Shown here: piece by piece, positions 19,843 through 34,080 of the stretch
Layout of the letters: each line of letters begins with the position of its first letter
Numbering within the stretch: position 1 is the stretch's first letter
DNA from: Promethearchaeota archaeon
GTDB lineage: Archaea; Asgardarchaeota; Lokiarchaeia; Sigyniarchaeales; SOKP01
Direction of reading: 5' to 3'
Assembly (NCBI GenBank): GCA_048940925.1
Contig: JBHLOC010000002.1
Span: 96,001-160,000 of the forward strand
DNA length: 64,000 nt
Notes under the pieces: model-generated
What the model was told of the DNA's origin: nothing
The model's database searches: none
Seen by the model: the letters and a program-made list of their open reading frames with translations, nothing else
Program-made: the position numbers and the translations under genes

Positions 19843-21771
19843 ATGTCTCATCCAGAGCTAAATCAGCTTACATTGGCAGAAGAGCTTTTTGATAATGGCA
19901 AGCTTAATGAAGCTCTTGATATATTAAATGATGAGATCCATTTTGAGGGGCTTACTCTTCAGCAAAAAAGTCATTTTCAGTTTCTTAAGGGTCTAATACT
20001 TTTTTATCATAATAAATGCGATGATCTTATTAATTTAGGTGAGAAAATATATACTGAAGGTCAGAATCGTAATGATTCTCTCCAATCTTTTGATGGGTTG
20101 TGGTTTATTTCCACTGGATTGGGTTTATCGAATAAATATGATGAAGCATTCAAACTTATTAAAAAAACTGAAATCTTTATCAAAAATATTTCGAATGTAT
20201 CTAAAGATGTTTTAACTTTAAGAAAAGTTCGTCTAAGTGTAATAAAGGCTTATGTTGGATTGTTTGGTGGTAAAGTAGATTTGGTTGAGAAATCTTTAGA
20301 GTGGATCTTAGATTCACAAGAAAAATTTGATAAATCATTCGAAATCGTATGGGCTAATCTTTTAATGGGGTGGTTTGATCTTAGTAGGGAGCACTTCAAA
20401 AAAGCATTATCTCTTGCAAAGGAAATTAAATTTAATCACTTCTGGATTGGTTTGTGTCGAATCTTTTTTGGAATGTATTATTTATCTATTGGCGAAATGG
20501 ATAAAAGCTTGAAATATAACAAAAAGGGTTTAGAATTATTTAAAAAGATGAAGAATAATGCTCATATTGCATTTCTATTAAATAATATGGGGATTTTATA
20601 TGGTGAAATGGGTGAATATGAACTTGCTTTGGAACATTTAGAGGAGAGTATAAATCTTTACGAGCAGAATCCTCATAGTTTGTTTAATATAGAAACCACT
20701 ATTGATAGTTTAATAACCTTAGCCATTGAACATGGAGATAACGAACGTGCTCAAAAACATTTTCATCGTCTGGAAGATATTTATAACCAAAAAAGAAACG
20801 ATATAATTGAAATTATTTACAAATTTGATAAAGCCCTAATTTTAAAAACAAGTTCTCGAATCCGAGATAAAGCAAAAGCGGAAGAATTATTCAAAGAACT
20901 TGTAGAAACTGATTTTACAAATTCTGATCTTATTATAAAAGCTCATGTCCATCTTTGTGACTTACTTCTCACGGAATATCGTATAGAGAATAACATTGAG
21001 GTACTTAATGAACTTAATTATTATATTTCCAGGCTATTGGATATTGCTGAAAAGCAACATTCATATCTAGTTTTTTGTGAGGCGTTCATATTACGAGCCA
21101 AAATAGCTTTAATTAGTTTCAATATGAAAACAGCAAGGCGTTATTTAACTCAAGCTCAAAAAATAGCGGAATCTTATGGTATGAAACGATTAACAATGAA
21201 AATTTCATATGAACATGATGAATTACTTAAAAAAACTAAAATGTGGGAGAATTTGAAACCTTCTGAAGTGTCCTTATCTGAACGTTTGGAGCTTAGTGGG
21301 TTGAACGAGCAAATGGGAAATATGGTAAAAAGACGAATGATTGAAGTTCCAGAGATATCAAAAGAAGACCCTGTTATGTTACTAATCTTAACTGAGGGTG
21401 GGAATCTCTTATTCTCTAGAAAATTTATTGAGGAATTTCTTTTTGAAGATGATATCTTAGGGGGCTTTCTAACTTCGATAAATTATTTTATTAGTGAAGT
21501 ATTTTCTGAAGGGCTTGAAAGGGCCGTTTTTGGTCAATATACACTTCTTATGATGCCCCTTGAACCCTTTTTAATTTGTTATATCTTTAAGGGGCACTCT
21601 TATTTTGCTCAACTTAAGATAAAATCTTTTATTACTTCACTACAGAATGATAATTTTATTTGGCAATCTTTACAGAAATTTTTCCAAAAGAGTAAATCTA
21701 TTCAAACTAACGATATCCCATCGCTTGAATCATTGATAATAGAGATTTTTATCAGAAAAAATATTCAGTAG
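19843..21771 (+). CDS. TPR-repeat protein with C-terminal longin-like domain
   Basis: TPRs (LNNMGILYGEMGEYELALEHLEES); C-terminal PVMLLILTEGGNLLFSRKF...DILGGFLTSI, similar to the longin N-termini at 6.7-9.9 kb. Confidence 0.75.
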   Translation: MSHPELNQLTLAEELFDNGKLNEALDILNDEIHFEGLTLQQKSHFQFLKGLILFYHNKCDDLINLGEKIYTEGQNRNDSLQSFDGLWFISTGLGLSNKYDEAFKLIKKTEIFIKNISNVSKDVLTLRKVRLSVIKAYVGLFGGKVDLVEKSLEWILDSQEKFDKSFEIVWANLLMGWFDLSREHFKKALSLAKEIKFNHFWIGLCRIFFGMYYLSIGEMDKSLKYNKKGLELFKKMKNNAHIAFLLNNMGILYGEMGEYELALEHLEESINLYEQNPHSLFNIETTIDSLITLAIEHGDNERAQKHFHRLEDIYNQKRNDIIEIIYKFDKALILKTSSRIRDKAKAEELFKELVETDFTNSDLIIKAHVHLCDLLLTEYRIENNIEVLNELNYYISRLLDIAEKQHSYLVFCEAFILRAKIALISFNMKTARRYLTQAQKIAESYGMKRLTMKISYEHDELLKKTKMWENLKPSEVSLSERLELSGLNEQMGNMVKRRMIEVPEISKEDPVMLLILTEGGNLLFSRKFIEEFLFEDDILGGFLTSINYFISEVFSEGLERAVFGQYTLLMMPLEPFLICYIFKGHSYFAQLKIKSFITSLQNDNFIWQSLQKFFQKSKSIQTNDIPSLESLIIEIFIRKNIQ

Positions 21772-21874
21772 AATTGTAATATTCAATCACTCCAGCACAC
21801 CAAAATTTTATATTAAACTAAACCTAGTCTTACATTAAAAAAAAATTATATTTTCATTAAGAATTAGAAATCTG

Positions 21875-22417
21875 ATGAATATTTCTGAGGAATTTCGATT
21901 TAAGATAGTAGTTGTTGGAGATGGAGCTGTAGGTAAAACATCCTTAATTAAAAAATACACAAAAGGAACATTTGAAAAGGATTATGTAAAAACAATCGGG
22001 GCTCAGTTTTCAAAATATAATAAAGAAATTAATGGAGACATGATTAGGTTAATATTCTGGGATATAGCAGGTCAAGATGATTTCAATTTTCTGCATCATT
22101 TGTTTTATAAAGAGGCTAAAGCAGCAATTATAGTATATAGCCTTGAAGAAAATGAACTTGGGAAAAATAGCTTTACACATATAAAGAACTGGCATGAAGT
22201 AGTAGTAGAAAATTGTGGAAATATTCCAGTGGTATTATTTGCTAATAAAATAGATTTAGTGGACGAAAATAATCTAAATATCACAAAAATCCAAAATCTT
22301 GTTGATCAACTTAATTTTTTGAAATTTTTCTTCACATCCGCAAAAACTGGGCAAAGGGTTGTTGAAGCGTTTAACGCGATTATAGAACAACTATATTTTA
22401 AATTCAAATCGTTGTAA
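21875..22417 (+). CDS. Rab-like small GTPase (paralogue of 12453..12995)
   Basis: GDGAVGKTS, WDIAGQ, NKID, TSAK; no prenylation motif. Confidence 0.92.
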   Translation: MNISEEFRFKIVVVGDGAVGKTSLIKKYTKGTFEKDYVKTIGAQFSKYNKEINGDMIRLIFWDIAGQDDFNFLHHLFYKEAKAAIIVYSLEENELGKNSFTHIKNWHEVVVENCGNIPVVLFANKIDLVDENNLNITKIQNLVDQLNFLKFFFTSAKTGQRVVEAFNAIIEQLYFKFKSL

Positions 22418-22595
22418 AAAATAGTATGAATCCATGAAATTATATATTTTAATTTTTTAACATTTCTCTATTTTTAGTTTTATGATGATATATCAAGAAG
22501 TTAACATATTTGAAAAAAAATTGAAAATTACATTTTTTTAGCTACCTTCGATAAACACTTTAAAGGTTTAATACCTTCAATTATTAATTGAGATT

Positions 22596-22997
22596 ATGAT
22601 TATTATGAATGCTAAAGAATTTATGGATCAATTGAAAGAAGTTCAGAAATTAATGAATTTAGAAAAATATAAAGAAGCAATTATAATCCTTGACAAATTA
22701 AAAGAATTAGAAAAAAAGGGCGAATATAATTTTAATTACAGTTTAATCCACACTTTATATCAAATAGATTCTAATTGTCGGTCAAATTATAATCAAGCAA
22801 TCATATTAACTCATATTAAAAAGATTTCAAATAAACAAAAATTAATTTCTTTGCAAGAATTAAATAAAATCATTAAAAACGACGAAGAATTGGATATTAA
22901 CGAGGACATTTTAAGAAGAGAAGTGGAATTACTTATTCTAAGAAATTTAATAACTGGTGTCATAAAAAAAGACTCAATTATTTTAAAATCAAGTTAA
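22596..22997 (+). CDS. Helical hairpin + winged-helix protein (PCI-like)
   Basis: TPR-like N-terminal helices; ISLQEL...EVELLILRNLITGVI. Confidence 0.45.
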   Translation: MIIMNAKEFMDQLKEVQKLMNLEKYKEAIIILDKLKELEKKGEYNFNYSLIHTLYQIDSNCRSNYNQAIILTHIKKISNKQKLISLQELNKIIKNDEELDINEDILRREVELLILRNLITGVIKKDSIILKSS

Positions 22998-23214: not shown

Positions 23215-23808
23215 ATGATAGTAGATCATCTTGATAAAACGATTAGCATAAAAATTGTATATTTTGGTCCAGCTTTATCAGGTAAGACGACTTCTATAAA
23301 ATCTCTATTTTCTCACTTTGGTAAAAAGGAAGACTTAAAATCGATTGAGAGCACTGTAAAAAGGACTTTATTTTTTGATTATGGTGTGGTGACATTCCAA
23401 AATGAGGAATGGTTGTTAAAAATTAACATTTATACTACAACTGGTCAAGATTTTTACATTATAACAAGACCAATTACTATACGGGCAGTTGATGGGATTA
23501 TTTTTGTTATCGATTCCCAAAAGAAAGTATATGAAAGGAATTTAATTTCTTGGAATGAATTAACATCATATTTTCAAGATGTTCTTAACAATATTCCAAT
23601 TATAATAGCCTTTAATAAACAAGATTTACCAGATAAATTCAATTCTATACAATTCCTAAAAAGAATCACCTTTCAAAAGTACAAAAGAATGGATTCACGA
23701 AATACTATAGCTATTAATGGAGAAGGTATTTTAGAATGTTTTGAAGAGATATTAAGATTAATTTTGAAAAAATATTTTGATTATAAAGAAATTTCAGCAG
23801 TTCATTAG
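23215..23808 (+). CDS. MglA-like small GTPase
   Basis: KIVYFGPALSGKTT, RTLFFD, YTTTGQ, VDGIIFVIDS, NKQD. Confidence 0.85.
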   Translation: MIVDHLDKTISIKIVYFGPALSGKTTSIKSLFSHFGKKEDLKSIESTVKRTLFFDYGVVTFQNEEWLLKINIYTTTGQDFYIITRPITIRAVDGIIFVIDSQKKVYERNLISWNELTSYFQDVLNNIPIIIAFNKQDLPDKFNSIQFLKRITFQKYKRMDSRNTIAINGEGILECFEEILRLILKKYFDYKEISAVH

Positions 23809-23828: not shown

Positions 23829-25049
23829 CTAAAAAAAACTTGCTTCCGCGACAGGTGTTTGTATCCTAATACTTTGTTGACTGTTATCTTCTAAAATAGT
23901 AATAAGAGCTGAAATATCCTGCTTAATTTCATAGATAATCTCTTTTTCTTCATCCTTTTTCCATATATTAAATCCAGTTAAATTTGGAGCAGTTTCAAAT
24001 AATCCTTCTTGTAACCCTAATACTTTAACAGTCACACCTTGAAGCTTTTCTTTTGAGATATTCTTTATTCTTAATTTATATCTATCGATATCAGAGTCAA
24101 TAGAAATGACCTTATAGACTTTTTGAAATTTAGAAGAGATTCCGTCGAATAAAGAAGAAGCTTCAGCAGCACCACCCGCGAATAAATCAACACCAGCTTT
24201 TTCTTCTGAAATAGGACTTCCTGTAATTGTAATAGGGACTTCTAATTTGATTGGTTCTTGCCCAAATTCAGGTTTCTTTTTTCCTATAATTAATAATGAC
24301 CATTTGGTATAAGCACCATAACGAAAACCAAAAAGTTCTTTTTCAGAAGGAGACCATAGATAATTATGAGTTGGTTCTGCGATTTCAGGGACTTTTAAAA
24401 GCAAAAATCCTTTATCAATATTTGTGGTTTTGCTATCACCTGCTATTGCGGGTGGGAGTTCTTCAACTTTACTGCAATTTTGCCCATATGCTTCACAGTA
24501 GCACACTATATTTGCATTTTGTAAAAGTCTTACTTCAATCTCTCTTAGAATATCAGAGGTGAAACTTATTTTAATTGTTTCACCAGGTTTATAAATGTCT
24601 TTAGTAAGTAAGACATTTAATCCTGAAATTGAAAATGAAATAGGATTTGGCATTTTAGTTTGAAGACCAGAGTCTTTTGCTTTTATCTCTATATCATGAG
24701 TTTTATTAATAATTAACTCATCTTCAGGATTGATTGGATTTGGTTGTCTTAATATTAATTTTAAAAAATATTTTAAATTTCGATTCTTAATGGTAGGAAC
24801 TACATTTGATTTTATTAAAAGGGATTTTTCTCTGATATATTCTCCTGCTTCAAAATGGCCTTTACTAAACACTTCCTCTTTAGAGACCTGAAGCTCTCTC
24901 AAACATGGAGGATTTGTAATTAATCGAATACCACTCCACAAAATATCAGAGTCTTTCTCAAAATTAAATTTAGTTCTAACAGTAAGCTTATCTCCAATGA
25001 ATACAGAACCTTCACCTAAGTCTCTTAATTCTAGTTTTACCAAGTCCAA
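23829..25049 (-). CDS. Arrestin/Vps26/Spo0M-like beta-sandwich protein with an extra C-terminal Ig-like domain
   Basis: GEY....L.....VPT......Y.LKL (arrestin-N-like) and LNVLLTKDIYKPGETIKI (arrestin-C-like). Confidence 0.55.
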   Translation of the reverse strand: MDLVKLELRDLGEGSVFIGDKLTVRTKFNFEKDSDILWSGIRLITNPPCLRELQVSKEEVFSKGHFEAGEYIREKSLLIKSNVVPTIKNRNLKYFLKLILRQPNPINPEDELIINKTHDIEIKAKDSGLQTKMPNPISFSISGLNVLLTKDIYKPGETIKISFTSDILREIEVRLLQNANIVCYCEAYGQNCSKVEELPPAIAGDSKTTNIDKGFLLLKVPEIAEPTHNYLWSPSEKELFGFRYGAYTKWSLLIIGKKKPEFGQEPIKLEVPITITGSPISEEKAGVDLFAGGAAEASSLFDGISSKFQKVYKVISIDSDIDRYKLRIKNISKEKLQGVTVKVLGLQEGLFETAPNLTGFNIWKKDEEKEIIYEIKQDISALITILEDNSQQSIRIQTPVAEASFF

Positions 25050-25300
25050 ACAGATTTAACGTTTATTATTATCTTAATTTTATTATTTAAAATATAGACT
25101 TTTATAAAAATTTTTTATTATTAATTGTTAAGACTTATGGATTTAAGTATTTTAGCTATACATTTAAGATTTTTTTCAAGAGTGTTAAAGTGTTAGTGAA
25201 TTTATAAGAATTATTCGTACGTATGAGTCAAAATTATTAAATTGTCGATAAGTAAATAATTTAACTCAATATTATTATTATAATAGAAAAAAGAAGTATT

Positions 25301-26032
25301 ATGATTAAGAAAATGTCAAAAAGATTAGGCTCTACTATTAAAGCAATTCTCTTCGATCTAGATAAAACACTTCTTGAAGTCGACCTAGATATGTTTGTCT
25401 CACAATACATAAAACTTTTAGCCCAAAGCGTAGCTTCTCTAAATATATCTCCTAAAAAGTTTATTTCAAAGTTAATGAAAGCTTCCAGAGCTGTTGAGAG
25501 AAATAATGGTCATATTACAAACGAAGAAGTGTATGCTAATGCTTTTTTTCCTTTAGAAGGGCATTCTAGAGAGGAAATCGAACCTTTTTTCGACAAGTTT
25601 TATAAAAATGATTTTCATAAATTAAAACAATGTACTAAAAGAAAACCTGAAGCAAGAGAAGTGGTTCAAACTGCTTTTGATAAGGGTTATGATGTAGTAA
25701 TAGCTACGATGCCAATCGTGCCAAGAATTGCTATTGAAAAACGTCTTGAATGGGCCGGTGTAGCGGATTTTCCTTATCGTTTAATCACCACCCTCGAAAA
25801 TAGTTGTGCTTCTAAATCTTTAATTCATCTAATATATTATGAGCAAATTTTAGATAGAATCGGTTATAGTGCGGAGAATTGTCTAATGGTTGGCGATGAG
25901 GATAGAGATATGGTTTGCAAACGACTCGGATTACAAACTTTTCTAATTGAAGGTAATCATAAGAAATGGGATAACAGTGTTCCAGAACCAACATATAGAG
26001 GTTCTTTGGAAGTTTTAAAATCTTTACTTTAA
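25301..26032 (+). CDS. HAD-family hydrolase
   Basis: FDLDKTLL motif I, IAT motif II, LMVGD..D motif IV. Confidence 0.85.
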   Translation: MIKKMSKRLGSTIKAILFDLDKTLLEVDLDMFVSQYIKLLAQSVASLNISPKKFISKLMKASRAVERNNGHITNEEVYANAFFPLEGHSREEIEPFFDKFYKNDFHKLKQCTKRKPEAREVVQTAFDKGYDVVIATMPIVPRIAIEKRLEWAGVADFPYRLITTLENSCASKSLIHLIYYEQILDRIGYSAENCLMVGDEDRDMVCKRLGLQTFLIEGNHKKWDNSVPEPTYRGSLEVLKSLL

Positions 26033-26041
26033 TATTTTACG

Positions 26042-26206
26042 CTAAGGCCATGTATATCCAATTTTTGTCATACTATAAATATGAGTGGGATCTTCTATTA
26101 GTAATTTAGCTAAACATTTAGAACAAAGATAAACTTCTTTAGTCTTACCACTAAAGAAGCACATAAATAACTTCTCTTTCTTTAAACAGCCCTCACATCT
26201 CATCAT
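26042..26206 (-). CDS. Small zinc-finger protein (54 aa), absent from the ORF track
   Basis: Manual translation MMRCEGCLKKEKLFMCFFSGKTKEVYLCSKCLAKLLIEDPTHIYSMTKIGYTWP; two CxxC pairs. Confidence 0.6.
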   Translation of the reverse strand: MMRCEGCLKKEKLFMCFFSGKTKEVYLCSKCLAKLLIEDPTHIYSMTKIGYTWP

Positions 26207-26384
26207 TCAACTTATAATCTTTTATGAAAAGATAAAAATATTTTTATTAAATTCTCAATAATTTTCGGATGAAATTTTCTTTTTATACTCTGAAGCTATA
26301 AGAGTTAAAGTTAAATACAAAATCTTTTATAATTTTTTTTAAAAAGAAAATACTTTACTTCCCATTATTATCCCATCACTTTGA

Positions 26385-27257
26385 ATGTTATTTTTAGAGC
26401 TTACAAAAATGAATGATCTCATATTGTTATGTTTGATTATGTTTATGTGTGTAAGGGCTATAGGATTAGGAGTTTCGATTGATTTCTTTTATGATTCAAA
26501 AGATCATAAATTCTTATATTTTATATTATGTTGGTGTTTTTGGATTGTCGCTAATATTTTTCCGATAATTGTTGATTTGACAGAAATTAATATTTTAATG
26601 GAGTTTTATCTCGTGTTAAATATATTGTTTGCTGTTCTCGGCTTTGTTTTTTATATTTGGGGATTTTTCAAATATTATCTAAAAGTGCCTTTTAGATTTA
26701 TGGTATTTTTAACAATAATTACCATAACAATTCCCCTTTTACTATATATTATAATTGATTATATAAGTGCAATTCTGTTTTCTATGTTCCTTCTTAATAT
26801 TTTACTTTTAGGTGGTTACATTATACCTCTAGTAAAAAAGAAAGACTTTATTAAATATATGGGAAAAAGTTTAAGATGGTATTTTGCGATAATATTAACA
26901 TTTATTATTTATTTCCCCGTTTCAGCTATAAGCATCTCATTGGGCTATAGTTATGGACTGTATAATGCTGAAAATACATTGATTATAATACTGTATTATG
27001 TTCCTACTATTAGCTCTACTTTTTTACTTATTATATTACTTGTTCATCTTGAATATACCATTTCTTCTCGGGAAAAATTTGGACTGAAAGATAAATATTC
27101 TCATAATCTAGGAAATATTATGCAAGTAATTTATAGTGCTTCTGACATTGTTAAGAGGACAACTAAAATAGAAAATGAAGAAGAAGAAAAATTAGACTTG
27201 ATTGAAAGAAAATGTAAGGAAGCTTCTAAATTAATAAAAGAGATTAGGAAACTTTAA
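26385..27257 (+). CDS. 7TM sensor with C-terminal HisKA/DHp-like helix pair and no HATPase domain (copy 1)
   Basis: About 7 TM helices, then DKYSHNLGNIMQVI H-box-like motif; protein ends about 50 aa later. Confidence 0.65.
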   Translation: MLFLELTKMNDLILLCLIMFMCVRAIGLGVSIDFFYDSKDHKFLYFILCWCFWIVANIFPIIVDLTEINILMEFYLVLNILFAVLGFVFYIWGFFKYYLKVPFRFMVFLTIITITIPLLLYIIIDYISAILFSMFLLNILLLGGYIIPLVKKKDFIKYMGKSLRWYFAIILTFIIYFPVSAISISLGYSYGLYNAENTLIIILYYVPTISSTFLLIILLVHLEYTISSREKFGLKDKYSHNLGNIMQVIYSASDIVKRTTKIENEEEEKLDLIERKCKEASKLIKEIRKL

Positions 27258-27280
27258 AACATCTTTTCGGAGGGATCAGT

Positions 27281-27436
27281 ATCGCCAATATATTTATAAT
27301 TTATAATAATCAAGACCTTGTTGCGCTTTTTAAACGATTCTTAGGATTAAAGGGACATCAATTATTTGCTAAAGTGTTTAATCTTGGTTTGATATATATT
27401 AAATATTTTTATATCTCAAATTTATCATATTGTTAA
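27281..27436 (+). pseudogene. Degenerate receiver-domain N-terminus (remnant of a tandem duplication)
   Basis: IANIFIIYNNQDLVALFKRFLGLKGHQLFAKVFN versus IANIFIIDDDKDIVLLFERLLGLEGHQVIAKAFN at 28347; acidic pocket lost, truncated. Confidence 0.7.
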
Positions 27437-27463
27437 GCATTAAAGAGAGAGGTTAGTTGTACT

Positions 27464-28312
27464 ATGCATGAACTTATATTTTTTAGTATGTTGTTATTAG
27501 TCTTCATAAGATTACTTGGAATTATTGTCTCGGTGAATTTTTACTATGAATCAAAAACTAATACATACATTTATCTCACTATTGGATGGTGTTTTTGGGT
27601 TATCGCTGGCATTGTTACTCTACTTTCTGCAATTGTTATTAATCAAACGCAAGAAAAATTATTTCTTTTAATGAATTATATTTTTGGACCATTAGCAATA
27701 TTTTTTATAACATCTGGACTATGCTCTTATTATATTAACATCTCTTCTAATAAAATTAGAGTTTTCTCTGTGGTCTTAATAATTTTACCCCTAACTATTT
27801 ATCTTTCTTTAGGTATAATTCTTGTCGCGTTTTATGCCCGGATTTTTCAGTTTTTGGGAATCATATTTATGATCTTAATACCTATTTTAAAGTACAACAC
27901 TTTTAAGAAAAAAATTGGGAAAAGCATTAGATGGTATTATCTAATGTGCTTTTCAATAGCTTTATATATACCGATAGCAGTTTTTAGTATGATTACTTCT
28001 ATATCCTCCGGTTTATTCCAAAGTGAAAATATTACTATAATCGTTGGAGCGTATTTATCTATCATAATAATGACTATTTTGCTTATAGCATTCATAATTC
28101 ATTTAGAATATACCATATCTAATAAACAACAATATCAATTGAAAGATAAATATTCTCATGAATTAGGAAATATTATGCAGGTAATTTATAGCGCTTCTGA
28201 CATTGTCAAGAGGATAACTAAATTAGAAAATGATGAAGAAGAAAAATTAAACTTAATTGAAAGAAAATGTAAGGAAGCTTCTAAATTAATAAATGAAATA
28301 AGAAACATCTAA
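27464..28312 (+). CDS. 7TM sensor with DHp-like tail and no HATPase domain (copy 2)
   Basis: DKYSHELGNIMQVI; 3' end nearly identical to copy 1. Confidence 0.65.
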   Translation: MHELIFFSMLLLVFIRLLGIIVSVNFYYESKTNTYIYLTIGWCFWVIAGIVTLLSAIVINQTQEKLFLLMNYIFGPLAIFFITSGLCSYYINISSNKIRVFSVVLIILPLTIYLSLGIILVAFYARIFQFLGIIFMILIPILKYNTFKKKIGKSIRWYYLMCFSIALYIPIAVFSMITSISSGLFQSENITIIVGAYLSIIIMTILLIAFIIHLEYTISNKQQYQLKDKYSHELGNIMQVIYSASDIVKRITKLENDEEEKLNLIERKCKEASKLINEIRNI

Positions 28313-28346
28313 TTATTTTTTAAAAAAGAATTTCTGAGGGATTAAA

Positions 28347-28724
28347 ATAGCTAACATCTTTATTATTGATGATGACAAAGATATAGTTCTATTATTTGAA
28401 CGACTTTTAGGATTAGAGGGACATCAAGTAATTGCAAAAGCTTTCAATGGGGAACAAGCTATAAAAATTTATAAAAATTTCCATAATTTTCCTGACATTA
28501 TTCTAATGGATCATAGAATGCCTCTTAAAAATGGTTTAGAGACTACTAAAGAATTATTGCGTATTGATCCTAATTGTAAGATAATTTTTATTAGTGCAGA
28601 TTATAGTGTTAAAAATGAAGCTTTAGAACAAGGTGCTATTGATTTCTTAGAGAAACCAATAGATTTCTCAACTCTTTTTAAATTAATTGAAAAATATAGA
28701 TTACCTGAAAGCAAAATTCACTAA
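28347..28724 (+). CDS. Stand-alone CheY-like response regulator, apparent non-canonical start (ATA 28347 or ATT 28341)
   Basis: IFIIDDD, PDIILMDHRMP, IIFISA, FLEKP; in-frame TGA at 28335 and no ATG/GTG/TTG before DDD; GAGGG upstream. Confidence 0.85.
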   Translation: MANIFIIDDDKDIVLLFERLLGLEGHQVIAKAFNGEQAIKIYKNFHNFPDIILMDHRMPLKNGLETTKELLRIDPNCKIIFISADYSVKNEALEQGAIDFLEKPIDFSTLFKLIEKYRLPESKIH

Positions 28725-28726
28725 AA

Positions 28727-29311
28727 TTAATGTTTCTTTTTTACTTTTTGATTAATTTCTTCATATCTAAAGCAATCAATTACATGGTCATTTACCATAC
28801 CAACAGCTTGCATAAACGCATAGCAAATTGTTGGACCTACAAATTTGAATCCTCTTTTTTTCAAATCTTTACTCATTTGCTCAGAGATTTCTGTTTTAGA
28901 AGGTAATTCTGAGAGATCTTTAAAATTATTTATTATTTGCTTATGACCTACAAATTTCCATATATATTTATCAAAAGAACCGTACTCTTTTTTAACTTTT
29001 AAAAATGCTTTAGCATTTGATATCACAGCTTCTATTTTTCGTCGATTTCTTATTATTCCTTCATTATTTAGTAATTCTTCTATTATCTTCTCATTATAAT
29101 TTACAATTTTCTGAGCATCAAAATCATTAAATGCTTTTCTATAATTCTCACGCTTTCGCAAGATCGTAGTCCAATTTAAACCTGCTTGAGCACCTTCTAA
29201 ATTTAAAAATTCAAAGAGGAGTCTATCATCATGAATAGGAGTTCCCCATTCTTTATCATGATATTCCCTCATCTGAGGATTGTCACCAACCCAGCTACAG
29301 CGATTAATCAT
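28727..29311 (-). CDS. tag: DNA-3-methyladenine glycosylase I
   Basis: RCSW, YHDKEWG, LEGAQAGLNW, FKFVGPTICYAFMQAVGMVNDH..C. Confidence 0.95.
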   Translation of the reverse strand: MINRCSWVGDNPQMREYHDKEWGTPIHDDRLLFEFLNLEGAQAGLNWTTILRKRENYRKAFNDFDAQKIVNYNEKIIEELLNNEGIIRNRRKIEAVISNAKAFLKVKKEYGSFDKYIWKFVGHKQIINNFKDLSELPSKTEISEQMSKDLKKRGFKFVGPTICYAFMQAVGMVNDHVIDCFRYEEINQKVKKKH

Positions 29312-29484
29312 TACTAATTCAACTAAATACTTTTAATAGATAGCATTAATGCAAATAATAAAATTTGATGCAAAAATTGCCATAAAAATATTATATATAA
29401 CTAGGTAAATTAAGATAAATAAAAAATAATCTTATATCAAATTACAATAAAAAGTGAATTCAATAAAAAATTTCTATTGAATTT

Positions 29485-29832
29485 ATGGGAATGATGGAAG
29501 AAAAAATCTCATTTTGCGGTTTAGATTGTCTTTCTTGTCCAGCTTATATAGCTACTCAACATGGTGATAGAAAAGCATTAGAACGAATTGCAATTGAATG
29601 GTCTAATAATGAACTTAAATTTGATTCAAAAAATATTGATTGTGTGGGGTGTACTGAAGATGGACGTCACTTTAGTTGGTGTGATATCTGTCCGATAAGA
29701 AAATGCGGAATGGGAAAAAAAATAAAAAATTGCGCACATTGCATATATTATCCCTGTGAAGAATTAAATCAATCTCTTAAAAATTCATTTAAGGCAAGAC
29801 AAAAACTAGATGACATTAGAAAAAATCTATAA
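29485..29832 (+). CDS. Cys-rich DUF3795-like protein
   Basis: CGLDCLSCPAY, CVGC, C.IRKC, NCAHC..YPC. Confidence 0.75.
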   Translation: MGMMEEKISFCGLDCLSCPAYIATQHGDRKALERIAIEWSNNELKFDSKNIDCVGCTEDGRHFSWCDICPIRKCGMGKKIKNCAHCIYYPCEELNQSLKNSFKARQKLDDIRKNL

Positions 29833-29902
29833 TATTATTATTCTCTATTAGATTTTTCAAAATTTTTACATTAGAATAAATAATATTCTAAAAACTCCAT
29901 TT

Positions 29903-30790
29903 TTAATTTTTAACTTTAGATGCGTTTTTAGAAATTCCATTTATTACTTGTGGCCACACTTCTGGTGGTAAACTATGCCCCATTCCTTCAATAATGAGTA
30001 GCTCTGCCTTAGGAATCGCCTCCACCGTATCTTTACCTCCTTCAAGCGGAATAAGAGGATCAGCACTTCCATGAATTACAAGGGTAGGAACATTTATAGA
30101 ACCTAAAGCTGATTTACGATTACCAGTAGCCATAATTGCTGCCATTTGACGTGTATAGCCAGGCTGATAATTTGAACGATCATATGAAGCAGAAACAAAT
30201 TTACGCGCCCTTTCTTCATCAAAAGGAATACCAGTACCATGAAAAATTCGCATACGATTTACACCATCTTCAATAATTGCTTCACGTCCATTAGGTGGGG
30301 GTTTTATTAATTCTTGCATAACTTCTGATTTTGGGCGGGGTAAATCAGGATTACCTGTACTACTCATAATAGAAATAAGAGATAAAACACGAGAAGGGTG
30401 CCTGTATGCAATCACTTGAACGATCATCCCTCCCATTGAAGCACCACAAATATGCGCTTTTTCAATATTAAGAATATCAAGAAGTCCAACAGCATCATCA
30501 GCCATATCTTCTAAAGTATATGGTGCTTCAACTTTCTCTCCTTTTTGTGCAGCCATGAATAATTTCATCAAATCTGGTTCGCCTACTTTTTCAAATTTGG
30601 TAGATAGTCCAACATCACGATTATCAAAGCGAATCACAAAGAAACTATATTCCACGAGTTTTTTGCAAAATTCTTCGTCCCAATGGATCATCTGGTCGCC
30701 AAGTCCGTTAATTAATAATAAAGGCTTTGAGCTAGGATCCCCAAATGTGTCATATTCTATTTCAATATTATTAAATTTTGCCCTTGGCAT
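29903..30790 (-). CDS. Alpha/beta hydrolase
   Basis: RFDNRDVGLS, GASMGG nucleophile, HGSADP, GMGH. Confidence 0.9.
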   Translation of the reverse strand: MPRAKFNNIEIEYDTFGDPSSKPLLLINGLGDQMIHWDEEFCKKLVEYSFFVIRFDNRDVGLSTKFEKVGEPDLMKLFMAAQKGEKVEAPYTLEDMADDAVGLLDILNIEKAHICGASMGGMIVQVIAYRHPSRVLSLISIMSSTGNPDLPRPKSEVMQELIKPPPNGREAIIEDGVNRMRIFHGTGIPFDEERARKFVSASYDRSNYQPGYTRQMAAIMATGNRKSALGSINVPTLVIHGSADPLIPLEGGKDTVEAIPKAELLIIEGMGHSLPPEVWPQVINGISKNASKVKN

Positions 30791-31011
30791 AGTTTTTTCC
30801 TGTTACTACAATCTTGAATTATTACTATTTAGGTATTATTGAATGAGTATTAATTTTAATTAATTTAAAATTATTTCAATTTCAAAAAATCTATTTTTTT
30901 GCTATATACTCTTCAAGAAAATATTATTATAGAATATTTTTAAAAAGTTTAGATAGTTAAAAAAAAGGAAGTTAATGAAATTAAATTTTCTATAATATAA
31001 GCTTTTTAGAA

Positions 31012-31389
31012 TTAACCCTTTTCCTTACGGAGTTCCCAGAATGTCCAAAATGCGAAAGCAAGATCAATAACACCAAATAAAATAATAAGAGGACTCACTA
31101 ATTCTAATATAACAAATATTATTAAGAAAATTATAACCGTAGCTCTTGTTTGTGCTGTCCACATAAAAAATTTTTTCATTCCCTCTTCGTCTATGGATGC
31201 CCGAATAAAGTAATAAGCTAAAAATAAAAAAATCATTCCTAAGACACGTGAAGCTACATCAGGGGGATTTGGTTCTGCTAGTATTGTAAACATGAGTCCA
31301 GGAAAAAACAAAAATGTTATCCCCAAAAATATTAGATATATACCGAAGATAAAAACAGATAAGGCAGCTCTACTCATATCTTTAAACAT
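31012..31389 (-). CDS. Four-TM hypothetical membrane protein
   Basis: Hydrophobic helices. Confidence 0.6.
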   Translation of the reverse strand: MFKDMSRAALSVFIFGIYLIFLGITFLFFPGLMFTILAEPNPPDVASRVLGMIFLFLAYYFIRASIDEEGMKKFFMWTAQTRATVIIFLIIFVILELVSPLIILFGVIDLAFAFWTFWELRKEKG

Positions 31390-31602
31390 TTAGAATTTCA
31401 CCATTTAATCCTTAAATATAAATTCAGTTTCAATTTATTACTGATTTAAATTAGGTGTAAGCATTCTTCATTTTTAATAACTCTATTTATTAATTAGAAA
31501 ATAAGTCAGAACTATTTAATTGAAAATATAATTTCTAAAATTTTGCCATTTTGAGTTAATTTCTATAATCTTAAAATGAAAAAAAGATATGAATAAAAAT
31601 AT

Positions 31603-32511
31603 TTATTCAGTATGAGCTGATATTATTAAATCAGCAAAAAGTTTCATGTCATTTAATAACATATTTAATTTATCTTGAGACTCTCTGTCCAAATCTCCGG
31701 ATTTCATTACAAGCACAGATATAATATACTTGAAAATATGAAGTTCAATTTCTTTACCATCACCATCTCTTCCACCAAATTTAGCAGAATCTGCCATAAA
31801 GATGTTTTCCCGAACTGTATTACATGCATTAATAAAATCTCTTAAATCCCCTCGTAGAGTTAAACCACTACTTACTCCTTGAACATTATGAACAATTACA
31901 TTCCCTGAAATATCGGCAATTATTACCTTCGCCTTAATCTCATCAAGTTGTTTTTCTGCCTTTTCAACATGAGTTTTTAGTTCTGCATAAGAAGATATTA
32001 GAATATCTCTAAATACTTTAGCTAATTTATCCTGTTCATAAATACTCGTAAGCATGAAGTCAAAATCATAATCCTTAAATAGGTCTACAAAAATTTCTTT
32101 GGCATTTTTCACATTTGTATCTAATAATTCCTTTTGGTAATTTTCGCTATCGTACTTATGAAAAAACAAGAATATCTTTGGTCTTTCATTATTCTTTCGA
32201 TAGAGATCTAATAAATTAATAAAATAGTTTTTTGCTTCTTCAAATGTCTTAGGGTCATGTAAATCAACAATAGGAATAAGAATATCGGTTCCTCGAAATA
32301 TCTCAGGTTTTTCCATATATTCTTTACGAAACTCTTCCTGACCCCCAAAATCAAAAATCCCAACTTGTAAACCTAAGAATGGATGTCTTCTCGTTTCATA
32401 GAGAATGGTCGGAGCCAAACTCTTGGTATCCTCAGGAGATTTCGCAGCAAAAGCAACTGAATATACGCTTGTCTTACCACATCCACTTAGTCCAACTAAA
32501 CTAATTTTCAT
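31603..32511 (-). CDS. Rag/Gtr-like GTPase with probable C-terminal roadblock-like domain
   Basis: GLSGCGKTS, LAPT, FDFGGQ, FHKYD (Rag-type HKxD), TSIYE; about 120 aa C-terminal alpha/beta domain. Confidence 0.75.
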   Translation of the reverse strand: MKISLVGLSGCGKTSVYSVAFAAKSPEDTKSLAPTILYETRRHPFLGLQVGIFDFGGQEEFRKEYMEKPEIFRGTDILIPIVDLHDPKTFEEAKNYFINLLDLYRKNNERPKIFLFFHKYDSENYQKELLDTNVKNAKEIFVDLFKDYDFDFMLTSIYEQDKLAKVFRDILISSYAELKTHVEKAEKQLDEIKAKVIIADISGNVIVHNVQGVSSGLTLRGDLRDFINACNTVRENIFMADSAKFGGRDGDGKEIELHIFKYIISVLVMKSGDLDRESQDKLNMLLNDMKLFADLIISAHTE

Positions 32512-32589
32512 TTTTGACTTTCCTTTTTTTAATGGTTTTTATAATACTTTATTTCATTTAACTTTTTTAATAAAATTTAATGTAGATTT

Positions 32590-34080
32590 TTATTCTTTTG
32601 GTGTTATTTTTAGTGTTCTGGAAAATATTTTTCCAAACGAATCAGTTGAAGCTTCAACTAATATATTTGCTTGCATAGGTTCACCATCCGGTATATCCAA
32701 AGGATAACCAATTTCAATTGTCTCAAACGGGAATAATTCTCTTATTGTTGTTATCCAAGGACTTTTTTCAAAAAGATCTTCAACAGCAACGATTCTAATT
32801 TTCAAGTCTTCCAATACATAACCTATTGTATTAGTTAATGATATATTCAGAATTCTATCCTCTTCATTTAACTCTTTTGAAACACTAAGAAATTTTCGCG
32901 TTCCTAGTGGAGGTGTAACTTCTGCCTGTTCCTCTTCTGGTTTTGTTTCAATTCTCGGTTCTTCCTTTACTTCAGAGTCCCGTACTATAAACACTTTCCT
33001 TTTTTGTATAGTGTATTGGGATACTTTTTTAAGTTTTGCTAAGTATAATACAGCATTCAGGTTAATAGCATTAAAAGGTTCTATTTTTATATAACCTTTC
33101 TTAGCAGCATCTTCTATAATTTCAGTACCAATCCCACTTCTCGCAAATACTGTATTTTTATTTGCTCCACTTCCAACTGAACCGACAGAAATATCCGCAT
33201 TTTCAGCAGTTAAATCTGTGCAAAAATTACAGCTTGAGGACTTAAATTTATCTAATTGTCTAATAGTGTAAGATTTCACTGGATCTACTTGTGGATCATA
33301 ATATAAATGGAATTTTCCCTTACTAATATCCATTTTTTGAACTTTTGATAAATCAATCCCTTCTTTGTCAAAGAATGGATAAATTGCTTCAGCTGAAAAT
33401 GAATCCATACAAAATAATCCAATTTTTAGCACATGACATCTCATAAAATATTTTAACATGCCAGTGGGGCTATCAAACATCTTTGCAACAGCATCAATAT
33501 TACATGGAGTACCTACAAATGCTATTGATCTAAAATCCTGTCTAACTGCATCCATGAGAGCTTCAACTGTTTGGGAGTGACTATAGATAGATCCTGAAGC
33601 TTTGATGGCATCATCTTTACTCGTAATAATCTGTGCTATTGGATACCATGGTTTGTTAGGGTCTTTCATTGTAACCACCGCTGCATCAATTAAATGTTCA
33701 TCAAACAAATAACACAAGAGACTTGTAACCGTGCCCCCATCCTGTCCGCCAATAACTTCTGGAATGTTAGTATTTGCAACATAGCCTGTTCTGAAATCTC
33801 CCATCAATTGGTATGGATCTGTTATTGTTCTTGGGCACTGATTATAACAAATTCCACATCCTGTACATTTGCCAATGAGTTTTGGTTGTCCTGCTAAATC
33901 ATCCCATTCTAATACTGGGCATACGGCAGCACATGTACCACACTGAGTACAGATTCCAGTTCTTATAATTTCTTTAGTAAGTAGACCAAAACTATCTTTA
34001 GCGCCTTCTAGCTTTTTTTGAATATATTCAAATGAATATTCATATGGAGATTCGGTTTTATCTGATTGATTTTCAGTCAT
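32590..34080 (-). CDS. FrhB/FdhB-family (F420-binding) Fe-S flavoprotein with extra C-terminal Ig-like domain
   Basis: 2x CxxCxxCxxxCP, GQDGGTVT, VGTPC, IGLFC, CNFCTD...ADISVGSVG. Confidence 0.85.
   Translation of the reverse strand: MTENQSDKTESPYEYSFEYIQKKLEGAKDSFGLLTKEIIRTGICTQCGTCAAVCPVLEWDDLAGQPKLIGKCTGCGICYNQCPRTITDPYQLMGDFRTGYVANTNIPEVIGGQDGGTVTSLLCYLFDEHLIDAAVVTMKDPNKPWYPIAQIITSKDDAIKASGSIYSHSQTVEALMDAVRQDFRSIAFVGTPCNIDAVAKMFDSPTGMLKYFMRCHVLKIGLFCMDSFSAEAIYPFFDKEGIDLSKVQKMDISKGKFHLYYDPQVDPVKSYTIRQLDKFKSSSCNFCTDLTAENADISVGSVGSGANKNTVFARSGIGTEIIEDAAKKGYIKIEPFNAINLNAVLYLAKLKKVSQYTIQKRKVFIVRDSEVKEEPRIETKPEEEQAEVTPPLGTRKFLSVSKELNEEDRILNISLTNTIGYVLEDLKIRIVAVEDLFEKSPWITTIRELFPFETIEIGYPLDIPDGEPMQANILVEASTDSFGKIFSRTLKITPKE

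Follow-up and report, generated by a model that had tools for sequence, protein, structure and literature searches.

A C-terminal Ig-like domain shared by proteins encoded with a Rag-like GTPase in Asgard archaea

Results

Genes at the locus

The window is a stretch of 64,000 nucleotides from a Promethearchaeota archaeon (GenBank assembly GCA_048940925.1, contig JBHLOC010000002.1, positions 96,001 to 160,000). It encodes an FrhB-like oxidoreductase subunit, a Rag-like GTPase, and an arrestin-like protein. The first and the last of these end in a tail domain of about 95 to 105 residues (Table 1). The FrhB-like gene lies upstream of the Rag-like gene and in the same orientation, as the earlier note had stated. 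Both are on the minus strand, and the gap between them is exactly 78 nt. There is a TATAAAAA-like stretch inside this gap, so the Rag gene may be transcribed separately.

Table 1. Positions of genes and features in the window
Feature	Position	Strand	Description and evidence
Arf/MglA-like small GTPase	23215..23808	+	Pfam; convergent with the arrestin-like gene
Arrestin/Vps26-like protein with C-terminal tail	23829..25049	-	406 aa; weak Arrestin_C, Atlas features, homologues
Tail domain of arrestin-like protein	23832..24137	-	Residues about 305-406; hhalign, reciprocal HMM, AF2
C-x-C-x6-C motif (C183/C185/C192) in arrestin-like body	24474..24503	-	Invariant columns, alignment A8
Lineage-specific block, seven ORFs of >= 100 aa	25301..31389	.	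ORF list; comparison with L004-L008, L030-L036, L044
Rag/Gtr1-like GTPase	31603..32511	-	302 aa; Gtr1_RagA Pfam, motifs, conserved adjacency
FrhB/FpoF-like flavin/Fe-S oxidoreductase subunit	32590..34080	-	496 aa; Pfam
Tail domain of FrhB-like protein	32593..32907	-	Residues 392-496; AF2, alignments A1/A3, fold matches

From its N-terminus, the FrhB-like protein consists of a 2x[4Fe-4S] region, the FrhB_N and FrhB_C domains (ending near residue 337), a charged linker, and the tail. Both Pfam domains score above their gathering scores (FrhB_FdhB_N, PF04422, 1.3e-19 and 70.5 bits; FrhB_FdhB_C, PF04432, 1.9e-39 and 135.4 bits). In NCBIfam, the protein falls short of equivalog status both for FrhB (TIGR03289, 160.8 bits against a cut-off of 331.5) and for FpoF (NF040616, 119.4 bits against a cut-off of 475). 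The genes cofE and cofH are present in this genome above cut-offs, so F420 should be available.

The GTPase matches Gtr1_RagA in Pfam at 5.7e-25 (88.5 bits; gathering score, 22). Its motifs are GLSGCGKTS (G1), DFGGQ (G3), and HKYD (G4), and HKxD is the Rag-type form of G4. Across 23 orthologues, the elements GxxxxGKT, DFGGQ, and HKYD show little or no variation. The protein continues into a C-terminal extension of about 110 aa.

The arrestin-like gene is single-copy, and the protein shows 75 to 92% identity among the 120 closest relatives listed. The Pfam Arrestin_C match is weak on the window protein (E = 0.074; 13.8 bits against a cut-off of 27.7). The same family was found at E <= 0.1 in 5 of 12 orthologues, the best at 0.0022. 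Atlas language-model features of residues 1 to 295 score 0.90 to 0.91 to arrestin and Vps26 clusters. The family profile matched nothing among PDB sequences at E <= 10. Four cysteines, C49 (24903-24905), C183, C185, and C192, are invariant in 12 diverse orthologues and could be a candidate metal or Fe-S site.

Homology of the two tails

Compared directly, the FrhB tail and the arrestin-like tail gave no BLASTP alignment. Their Smith-Waterman score was 42, against 28 +/- 4.6 for shuffles, and 10 of 1,000 shuffles reached it. With two shallow family profiles, hhalign returned an E value of 0.045 and a probability of 1.2%. It recovered the register that had earlier been aligned by eye, but the two window tails alone are only marginal. 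This shallow value was superseded once the profiles included divergent members.

We used an alignment of FrhB tails and tails of a third, ~350-aa family, without arrestin sequences (A3), and an alignment of arrestin tails from several families (A4). By hhalign, A3 and A4 match with 97.9% probability and an E value of 5.4e-13 over 91 columns, which is the whole domain. The A1-A4 comparison gave 91.4% and 9e-7. In a column-shuffle null for the shallower comparison of A3 with A2, the shuffles scored 11.4 +/- 2.2 with a maximum of 19, and the observed score was 35.3.

Reciprocal profile searches of whole genomes found the other family each way, with best E values of 1e-9 to 1e-11. The A3 HMM matched the tails of arrestin orthologues at 1.7e-10 to 9e-3. 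Arrestin-only profiles matched FrhB tails at 1.7e-9 and, in a second search, at 7.5e-9 to 2e-5. To judge by these profile comparisons, the FrhB-type and arrestin-type tails are one homologous domain. Significant profile-profile similarity thus bears out the homology that the earlier note had proposed by eye.

The combined tail profile also produced a likely false positive. A 404-aa ORF on contig C40, an apparent fourth member in this genome, matched at E = 7.5e-5, and it was rejected because the match lies inside the catalytic domain of an M28 peptidase. Borderline E values are untrustworthy in this A+T-rich genome; the key values given above are far stronger.

Fold and range of the tail domain

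The AF2 model of the FrhB tail is a seven-stranded Ig-like beta-sandwich with a pLDDT of 84. The model of the arrestin tail is poor (pLDDT 59), and its strand spacing and order are the same as in the FrhB tail. The two models have 34 of their top 50 PDB matches in common. The domain carries the signature N ... (L/F)FE ... W ... P.E, in which the N, FE, and P.E positions are invariant across host proteins. FrhB tails of orthologues are 63 to 86% identical. In every case, the domain stands at the C-terminus; across 94 tail-bearing ORFs, the median number of residues beyond its end is 2.

There are four types of host protein, whose bodies are unrelated to one another: FrhB/FpoF-like flavin/Fe-S proteins, NfnB/GltD-like proteins (in one lineage), arrestin-like proteins, and unannotated proteins of ~350 aa. 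A copy of the last type is encoded in this genome, 14 kb outside the window. It has no Pfam or NCBIfam family, and its listed relatives are all "hypothetical." The profile of the ~350-aa family matched nothing among PDB sequences at E <= 10. Atlas gives a longin/NPRL2 lead only (0.86, with NPR2 on 19% of one cluster).

On the tail domain, no Pfam family reaches its gathering score, and neither tail has an NCBIfam family. Run exhaustively over 1.84 billion representatives, a profile search gave only 18 matches, and the nine inspected were FrhB-type proteins, tail fragments, or proteins of the ~350-aa type. Two long proteins among the 18 were set aside, since they match over partial stretches only; one is a repeat protein that matches a short strand motif. 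Apart from fragments and these two partial matches, the domain was found only in Asgard archaea, to which it would be restricted. Searches of the literature on Asgard arrestin, Rag, FrhB, or F420 yielded no description of the operon or of the tail domain. As far as sequence can tell, the tail is a new domain family, at present blank in annotation pipelines.

In an Atlas fold search, the nearest non-self neighbour is the ~350-aa family (TM 0.74-0.78). The best small-domain matches in Foldseek include the lipid-binding sandwiches NPC2, MD-1, RhoGDI, and UNC119, with E values of about 1e-3 and TM of 0.5 to 0.6. Ig domains of glycosidases and transglutaminase barrels match at Z of about 10. The modelled Ig-like sandwich is a generic fold and points to no particular functional relative.

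Gene order across the Asgard archaea

The FrhB-Rag adjacency is widespread and is not unique to this genome. Among FrhB-plus-tail loci from other genomes, the Rag-like gene is next and on the same strand in 26 of 38, with gaps of 9 to 131 nt. It is adjacent but convergent in three further loci. An arrestin-plus-tail gene comes next after Rag in 12 of the 26. At least four families in the phylum sample have this arrangement. To judge by gene spacing, the module may also be present in other families of the window's class, where the gene between FrhB and arrestin is known by position alone. Conserved gene order thus links the domain to Rag in several Asgard families and in more than one class.

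The older arrangement runs [~350-aa protein+tail] - [FrhB-like+tail] - [Rag-like GTPase] - [arrestin-like+tail]. At the head of the module, there is often a CBS-domain gene. In two families, a C25 peptidase gene (673-871 aa) lies between the ~350-aa and FrhB-like genes in 10 of 10 module loci. In the window's own family and in two other module-bearing families, the module regions examined showed no C25 peptidase gene.

Four other families have the arrestin-like gene directly beside the Rag gene with nothing between. In the window, it has drifted from the FrhB-Rag pair, and other genes fill the roughly 6.5 kb between them. Here the arrestin-like gene abuts the MglA-like GTPase gene, as previously noted; the two genes are convergent and 20 nt apart. 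This adjacency is real, but it recurs only in the window's own family and does not belong to the older arrangement. The pairing was seen in five loci in which the arrestin gene no longer lies with Rag. The two genes are adjacent in L016-L018 and one gene apart in L009, L011, and L028.

In one family, an NfnB/GltD-like subunit with a tail replaces FrhB in the same gene context, which argues that the tail, and not the FrhB body, is needed by the module. In a family represented by three genomes, FrhB with its tail stands apart from any Rag gene, and a search of these genomes at E <= 1e-8 detected no arrestin-like gene. The tail can thus be kept even where those partners are missing.

In a midpoint-rooted FastTree phylogeny, the tails group by host protein, with local support of 0.997 for the arrestin tails and 0.907 for the third family. 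Therefore, the arrangement is old and inherited and is not a recent shuffle.

Discussion

A proposed role for the tail

Rab-, Arf-, and Rag-like GTPases number in the dozens in Asgard genomes. In the cultured strain MK-D1, GTPase genes generally lie outside operons with candidate regulators, so that their partners are hard to predict (Tran et al., structural survey, PMC10933270). Rag-like GTPases and NPRL2-like longin proteins of Asgard archaea are already on record (Liu et al. preprint; Tran et al., PMC10933270). The preprint of Liu et al. also covers other Asgard GTPase neighbourhoods, and the words arrestin and F420 are absent from its main text. One Rag-like GTPase with a conserved operon offers a testable context for a eukaryote-type GTPase in archaea. 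Its operon neighbours are marked by a common domain that appears restricted to Asgard archaea, and one of them is a redox enzyme subunit.

We suggest, with a probability of roughly 0.45, that the tail docks its carrier proteins into one Rag-centred complex. In such a complex, the tail would be a common docking or assembly module, through which the redox subunit, the arrestin-like adaptor, and the third protein meet on one partner or dock to one another. The Rag-like switch and a flavin/Fe-S electron-input module linked to F420H2 or NAD(P)H could then be read out or controlled jointly. The whole would be a GTPase module that senses energy or redox state. A complex prediction from Rag-like GTPase and FrhB-tail alignments scored 0.06 against a mark of 0.32, and we used it neither for nor against this reading. 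Gene order, for its part, is linkage and not binding.

Several other explanations have to be weighed. There is almost no likelihood that the two tails, as segments of amphipathic beta-strands, are alike by chance. Compared directly, the pair indeed shows no significant similarity, but the enriched profiles match over 91 columns at 5.4e-13, the genome-wide matches are reciprocal and stand beside a shuffle control, and position in the protein and strand order are common to both tails. Homologous tails might also have no common function now. They would then be stabilizing caps left by old domain duplications, and the gene order would reflect co-regulation of independent proteins. Ig-like caps are common as passive additions, and function cannot be shown by sequence alone. 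However, we think this unlikely in view of the very strong conservation of the FrhB tails and of the N, FE, and P.E positions across hosts. A passive cap also sits poorly with the presence of this tail on the redox enzyme that replaces FrhB in an unchanged gene context, and with its retention, from class to class, by three or four proteins of a single module.

Alternatively, the tail may be an independent targeting domain that acts, for example, by binding membrane or lipid as other E-set sandwiches do. Its carriers would then reach the same cell site with no contact to Rag or to other tail proteins. In eukaryotes, arrestin/Vps26, longin-type, and Rag proteins act at membranes (see Tran et al., PMC10933270). 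Lipid-binding sandwiches are among the best Foldseek small-domain matches, and one family keeps FrhB with its tail and no Rag nearby. We doubt this reading, because the lipid-sandwich matches are no better than those to glycosidase Ig domains or transglutaminase barrels, and because it leaves the persistence of one operon with a GTPase unexplained. Very unlikely, in our judgment, is a tail that labels the proteins bearing it for a single system of processing or turnover. The candidate would be the C25 (gingipain/caspase-fold) peptidase, whose gene is inside the module in all 10 loci of two families, and the GTPase would be a regulator and not a docking partner. However, the tails are conserved in three module-bearing families where no C25 gene was seen in the module regions.

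Docking on a Rag-centred complex, the reading that we prefer, can be extended. The FrhB- or NfnB-type input, a CBS nucleotide sensor, the four-cysteine arrestin-like adaptor, and a longin-like regulator might all be assembled on the Rag-like GTPase through the shared docking domain. This archaeal pathway for energy or redox sensing would be a forerunner, among prokaryotes, of the Rag/GATOR-type nutrient sensing of eukaryotes, with redox carriers in the place that amino acids have there. We regard this full scheme as speculative and rather improbable. The operon suggests that a eukaryote-type GTPase switch may first have been tied to core anaerobic energy metabolism, and it narrows joint testing to three to five defined proteins.

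Comparison with known systems

The earlier note had proposed an undescribed, GTPase-associated appendage domain. Its Ig-like fold, its scores below the Pfam gathering scores, and its tie to the Rag-like gene by conserved order hold up, but the adaptin-type match is generic. The gamma-adaptin ear, BBS1 GAE, and E-set sandwiches have size and an all-beta sandwich architecture in common with the tail. By structure, BBS1 GAE (6vbu_1) matches at Z 9.1, as one of 69 chains at Z >= 8, and in a second search at Z 7.5. By sequence, GAE_BBS1 matched one member (E = 0.0031; 18.2 bits against a cut-off of 27). Appendage domains are no nearer to the tail than dozens of unrelated Ig-like domains, and the N, FE, and P.E residues are peculiar to the tail family.

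FpoF/FqoF and FrhB share with the window protein the FrhB_N/FrhB_C core after 2x[4Fe-4S], and the NCBIfam FpoF model aligns with residues 37 to 354. Unlike FpoF and FrhB, the window protein carries a linker and a beta-sandwich in addition, together about 155 aa. Its gene adjoins no hydrogenase or Fpo genes in the window, and its conserved neighbour is a GTPase gene. The arrestin-like protein resembles the arrestin clan (arrestins, Vps26, Spo0M, and Rgp1) by weak but repeated Arrestin_C matches, below the Pfam cut-off, and by language-model similarity. It differs from that clan in its four invariant cysteines and its additional C-terminal tail domain.

Close parallels are also found in the eukaryotic nutrient-sensing Rag modules, namely, Rag-Ragulator, GATOR1 with Nprl2/Nprl3, and FLCN-FNIP. 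Eukaryotic Rags form a heterodimer pair through a C-terminal roadblock domain, whereas the Asgard operon has one Rag-like gene and no second, and an mTOR-type kinase is not implied. The Asgard partners are a flavin/Fe-S subunit, an arrestin-like protein, and the ~350-aa protein, unlike those of eukaryotic Rag, and their common tail has no counterpart in eukaryotic Rag complexes. Common to both systems is a GTPase of the Gtr1/RagA family that has HKxD as its G4 motif, bears a C-terminal extension, and is encoded or assembled with non-catalytic, adaptor-type proteins.

Genes of the window

The window is A+T-rich (G+C about 30%) and spans bases 96001 to 160000 of contig C41 in a genome of 4.8 Mb; homologues of its proteins carry the source labels Promethearchaeota or Lokiarchaeota. 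The coordinates and distances that the earlier note had given were all correct.

Tail-bearing genes and their neighbors (positions are in the window unless a contig or fetched locus, L0xx, is named)
Feature	Position	Strand	Remarks
FrhB-like protein, 496 aa	32590-34080	-	N-terminal 2x[4Fe-4S], then FrhB_FdhB_N and FrhB_FdhB_C
Rag-like GTPase	31603-32511	-	Gtr1_RagA, 88.5 bits; 78 nt downstream of FrhB-like ORF, co-oriented
Arrestin-like protein, 406 aa	23829-25049	-	Arrestin_C weak only, E 0.074
Arrestin-like cysteines	24474-24503 (C183, C185, C192), 24903-24905 (C49)	-	Invariant columns
Arf/MglA-like GTPase	23215-23808	+	3' end facing arrestin-like 3' end (convergent)
P0245, 352 aa (source annotation 347 aa)	Contig C41:173548-174606 = L002:769-1827	+	About 14 kb past window's end
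NfnB/GltD-like protein with tail, 577 aa	L012:1737-3467	+	Also L013, L049-L051

The FrhB-like protein has an FpoF-like architecture, but it scores far under the equivalog cutoffs of both FpoF and FrhB. Because cofE and cofH are both present in the genome above their cutoffs, F420 is a plausible substrate. In the Rag-like GTPase, the motifs GLSGCGKTS, DFGGQ, and HKYD are invariant or almost so among 23 orthologues; an HKxD form of G4 is characteristic of Rag/Gtr proteins. The spacer between the FrhB-like and Rag-like genes (32512-32589, minus strand) has no T-run of five or more. Some 30 nt ahead of the Rag start it contains a stretch resembling TATAAAAA, which makes an internal promoter for the Rag-like gene conceivable.

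In language-model features, the clusters closest to the body of the arrestin-like protein are those of arrestin and Vps26 (0.90 to 0.91). The family is single copy; it was found in 33 of the 40 genomes sampled from the window's family and in every genome sampled from three other families. Four cysteines (C49 and C183-x-C185-x6-C192) are invariant in 12 orthologues, some only 28% identical, and could bind Zn or an Fe-S cluster within a fold of the arrestin type, beside redox genes.

The two tails are homologous

The earlier note had aligned the C-terminal tails of the FrhB-like and arrestin-like proteins by eye. The two window sequences by themselves do not prove homology: BLASTP found no match between them, and their Smith-Waterman score of 42 was equalled by 10 of 1,000 shuffles. 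An hhalign comparison of two shallow alignments of close orthologues gave an E of 0.045, with exactly the register proposed by eye.

A search of the window's own genome with the FrhB-tail profile led to a third protein with the same C-terminal motif, P0245. Across 1.84 billion representatives, an exhaustive search with a profile yielded no more than 18 proteins, including divergent FrhB-type proteins and a 349-aa P0245 relative. From the divergent members found, we built a broader alignment of FrhB and P0245-type tails that contained no arrestin-type sequences. It matched the arrestin-tail alignment with a probability of 85% (E 5.8e-6), and the observed score of 35.3 compares with 11.4 ± 2.2 (maximum 19) for a column-shuffle null. 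When the arrestin-tail alignment was enriched with orthologues of other families, the probability was 97.9% (E 5.4e-13 over 91 columns).

Profile searches agreed in both directions. The HMM of the broader alignment matched tails of arrestin orthologues at E-values of 1.7e-10 to 9e-3 in a genome-sized search space. Conversely, the arrestin-family profile found an FrhB tail (1.7e-9) and a P0245-type tail (7.4e-9), and a profile built from arrestin tails only reached FrhB tails with E-values between 7.5e-9 and 2e-5 and tails of the P0245 type with values of about 1e-12. One further candidate, a membrane M28-type peptidase (contig C40:231000-232214, minus strand), reached 7.5e-5 with the combined tail profile, but the match lies inside the catalytic domain and is likely a false positive. 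Borderline E-values are therefore unreliable in this A+T-rich composition; the key tail E-values are many orders of magnitude stronger. The similarity seen by eye is real and robust.

A new sequence family with a common fold

The tail is about 95 to 105 residues long and follows a linker. It is C terminal without exception, with a median of 2 residues behind it in 94 ORFs. N, FE, and P.E are invariant, and W is nearly so. The FrhB tail is predicted to form a seven-strand sandwich (pLDDT 84). The arrestin-tail model, although of poor quality (pLDDT 59), spaces its strands in the same way, and 34 of the 50 best PDB matches are common to both models. These matches are generic Ig-like or E-set folds (transglutaminase barrels, GH2 Ig domains, BBS1 GAE, RhoGDI, NPC2, and MD-1), none prominent; BBS1 GAE stands no closer than the other sandwiches. 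No Pfam family matched the tails at gathering score, and sub-threshold matches of single members were to assorted sandwiches (WxLIP_HBD, GAE_BBS1, CBM49, and Arrestin_C). An ESM Atlas fold search with the FrhB tail returned its own cluster and then three clusters of hypothetical Promethearchaeota proteins of about 345 aa, which by size and taxon look like the P0245 family. The tail is a new sequence family with a common fold.

The P0245 family is wholly without annotation among its listed relatives. The N-terminal part of P0245 matched nothing in Pfam or PDB, and the sole hint is a weak NPR2/longin lead.

In a midpoint-rooted FastTree of 93 tails, the tails group by host protein (local support, 0.997 for arrestin and 0.907 for P0245-type), and NfnB tails are nested among FrhB tails. 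The tail fusions are therefore old.

Tail-bearing genes surround a Rag-like gene

From other genomes of the phylum we retrieved 48 loci, whose ORFs were labelled with BLASTP and the tail HMM. The Rag-like gene lies directly downstream on the same strand in 26 of 38 loci with a tailed FrhB, with gaps of 9 to 131 nt, so the adjacency recurs beyond this genome. Immediately next comes the tailed arrestin-like gene in 12 of these 26, in one case overlapping the Rag end by 20 nt. In three more loci Rag is adjacent but convergent, and one locus has the arrestin and Rag genes adjacent on the opposite strand. In one family (three genomes), the tailed FrhB has no Rag nearby, and an arrestin-like gene was not found at E <= 1e-8.

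In other families, a P0245-type gene heads the FrhB-Rag-arrestin operon. The full order in two families is CBS-domain protein, tailed P0245-type protein, C25 peptidase, tailed FrhB, Rag, and tailed arrestin. The C25 (gingipain family) protein looks cytoplasmic and has a CarboxypepD_reg sandwich (L004:8138-10750 and L006:7059-9080, both minus strand); its gene lies inside the module in eight further loci of these families, with a CBS-pair protein gene at the module head. In other families of the window's class, tail matches place the tailed P0245-type, FrhB, and arrestin genes in this order on a common strand, spanning about 5 kb at most, and the FrhB-to-arrestin gap has the size of one Rag-like gene. 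Another family has a tailed paralogue of about 320 aa, a tailed P0245-type protein, and CBS, then a tailed FrhB facing a convergent Rag. Five loci of this family have an NfnB/GltD-like subunit (Fer4_20 and Pyr_redox_2) that bears the tail instead of FrhB. An NfnA-like gene stands ahead of its gene and, in the examined locus L049, so do NuoF- and NuoG-like genes.

Genes for HdrA-, MvhD-, and tail-less FrhB-type proteins, a putative electron-bifurcating set, often flank the module (L007:3576-10982, L008:3637-7248, L015, and L028-L032).

Within the window's own family, a distance of 2 to 28 kb usually separates the arrestin-like gene from FrhB-Rag on the same contig. The earlier note had it abutting the MglA-like GTPase. 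Such a gene is beside or near it in several loci of this family (MglA/Arf-like pairs are adjacent in L016-L018 and one gene apart in L009, L011, and L028). The convergent pairing was not seen in the four families that keep the arrestin-like gene beside Rag. The stretch upstream of the MglA-like gene (19843-22997, plus strand as well) holds a second GTPase-centered cluster; its products are a 642-aa protein rich in TPR, a Ras/Rab-like GTPase (Ras family, 1.3e-41), and a protein of 133 aa without family.

A possible docking module

Three or four unrelated proteins share a homologous tail, and in several families and classes their genes stay grouped around one Rag-like gene. We suggest, with a probability of about 0.45, that the tail serves these proteins in common as a docking or assembly module. 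In this scenario, the Rag-like switch would work jointly with an electron-input subunit of the flavin/Fe-S type, an arrestin-like adaptor, and a protein that may be a regulator. That what the module requires is some redox enzyme bearing the tail is argued best by the loci in which FrhB gives way to another tail-bearing redox subunit in the same context. The tail might instead serve independent targeting, such as membrane binding, which we consider rather unlikely, and it is equally doubtful that the tails, for all their homology, have no shared function. A link to the C25 peptidase, encoded inside the module in the L004 and L006 families, is very improbable, and other readings share the small remainder. 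Of the earlier proposal, an undescribed, GTPase-associated domain is supported by the new family and the conserved Rag gene order; GTPase binding and redox coupling are hypothetical.

Asgard RagA-like GTPases, NPRL2-like longin proteins, and a LAMTOR1-like/Rab-like/DENN operon have been described, and most such genes lie outside conserved neighborhoods (Liu et al., preprint 10.1101/2020.10.19.343400). The main text of that preprint mentions neither "arrestin" nor "F420." Tran et al. (PMC10933270) regard what Rab and Rag proteins do in Asgard archaea as unknown and note that GTPase genes of MK-D1 generally do not share operons with candidate regulators. Our literature search found no paper connecting Asgard arrestin, Rag, and FrhB. 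We regard the tail as a new domain family and its neighborhood as a conserved and likewise new variant of a GTPase-centered module.
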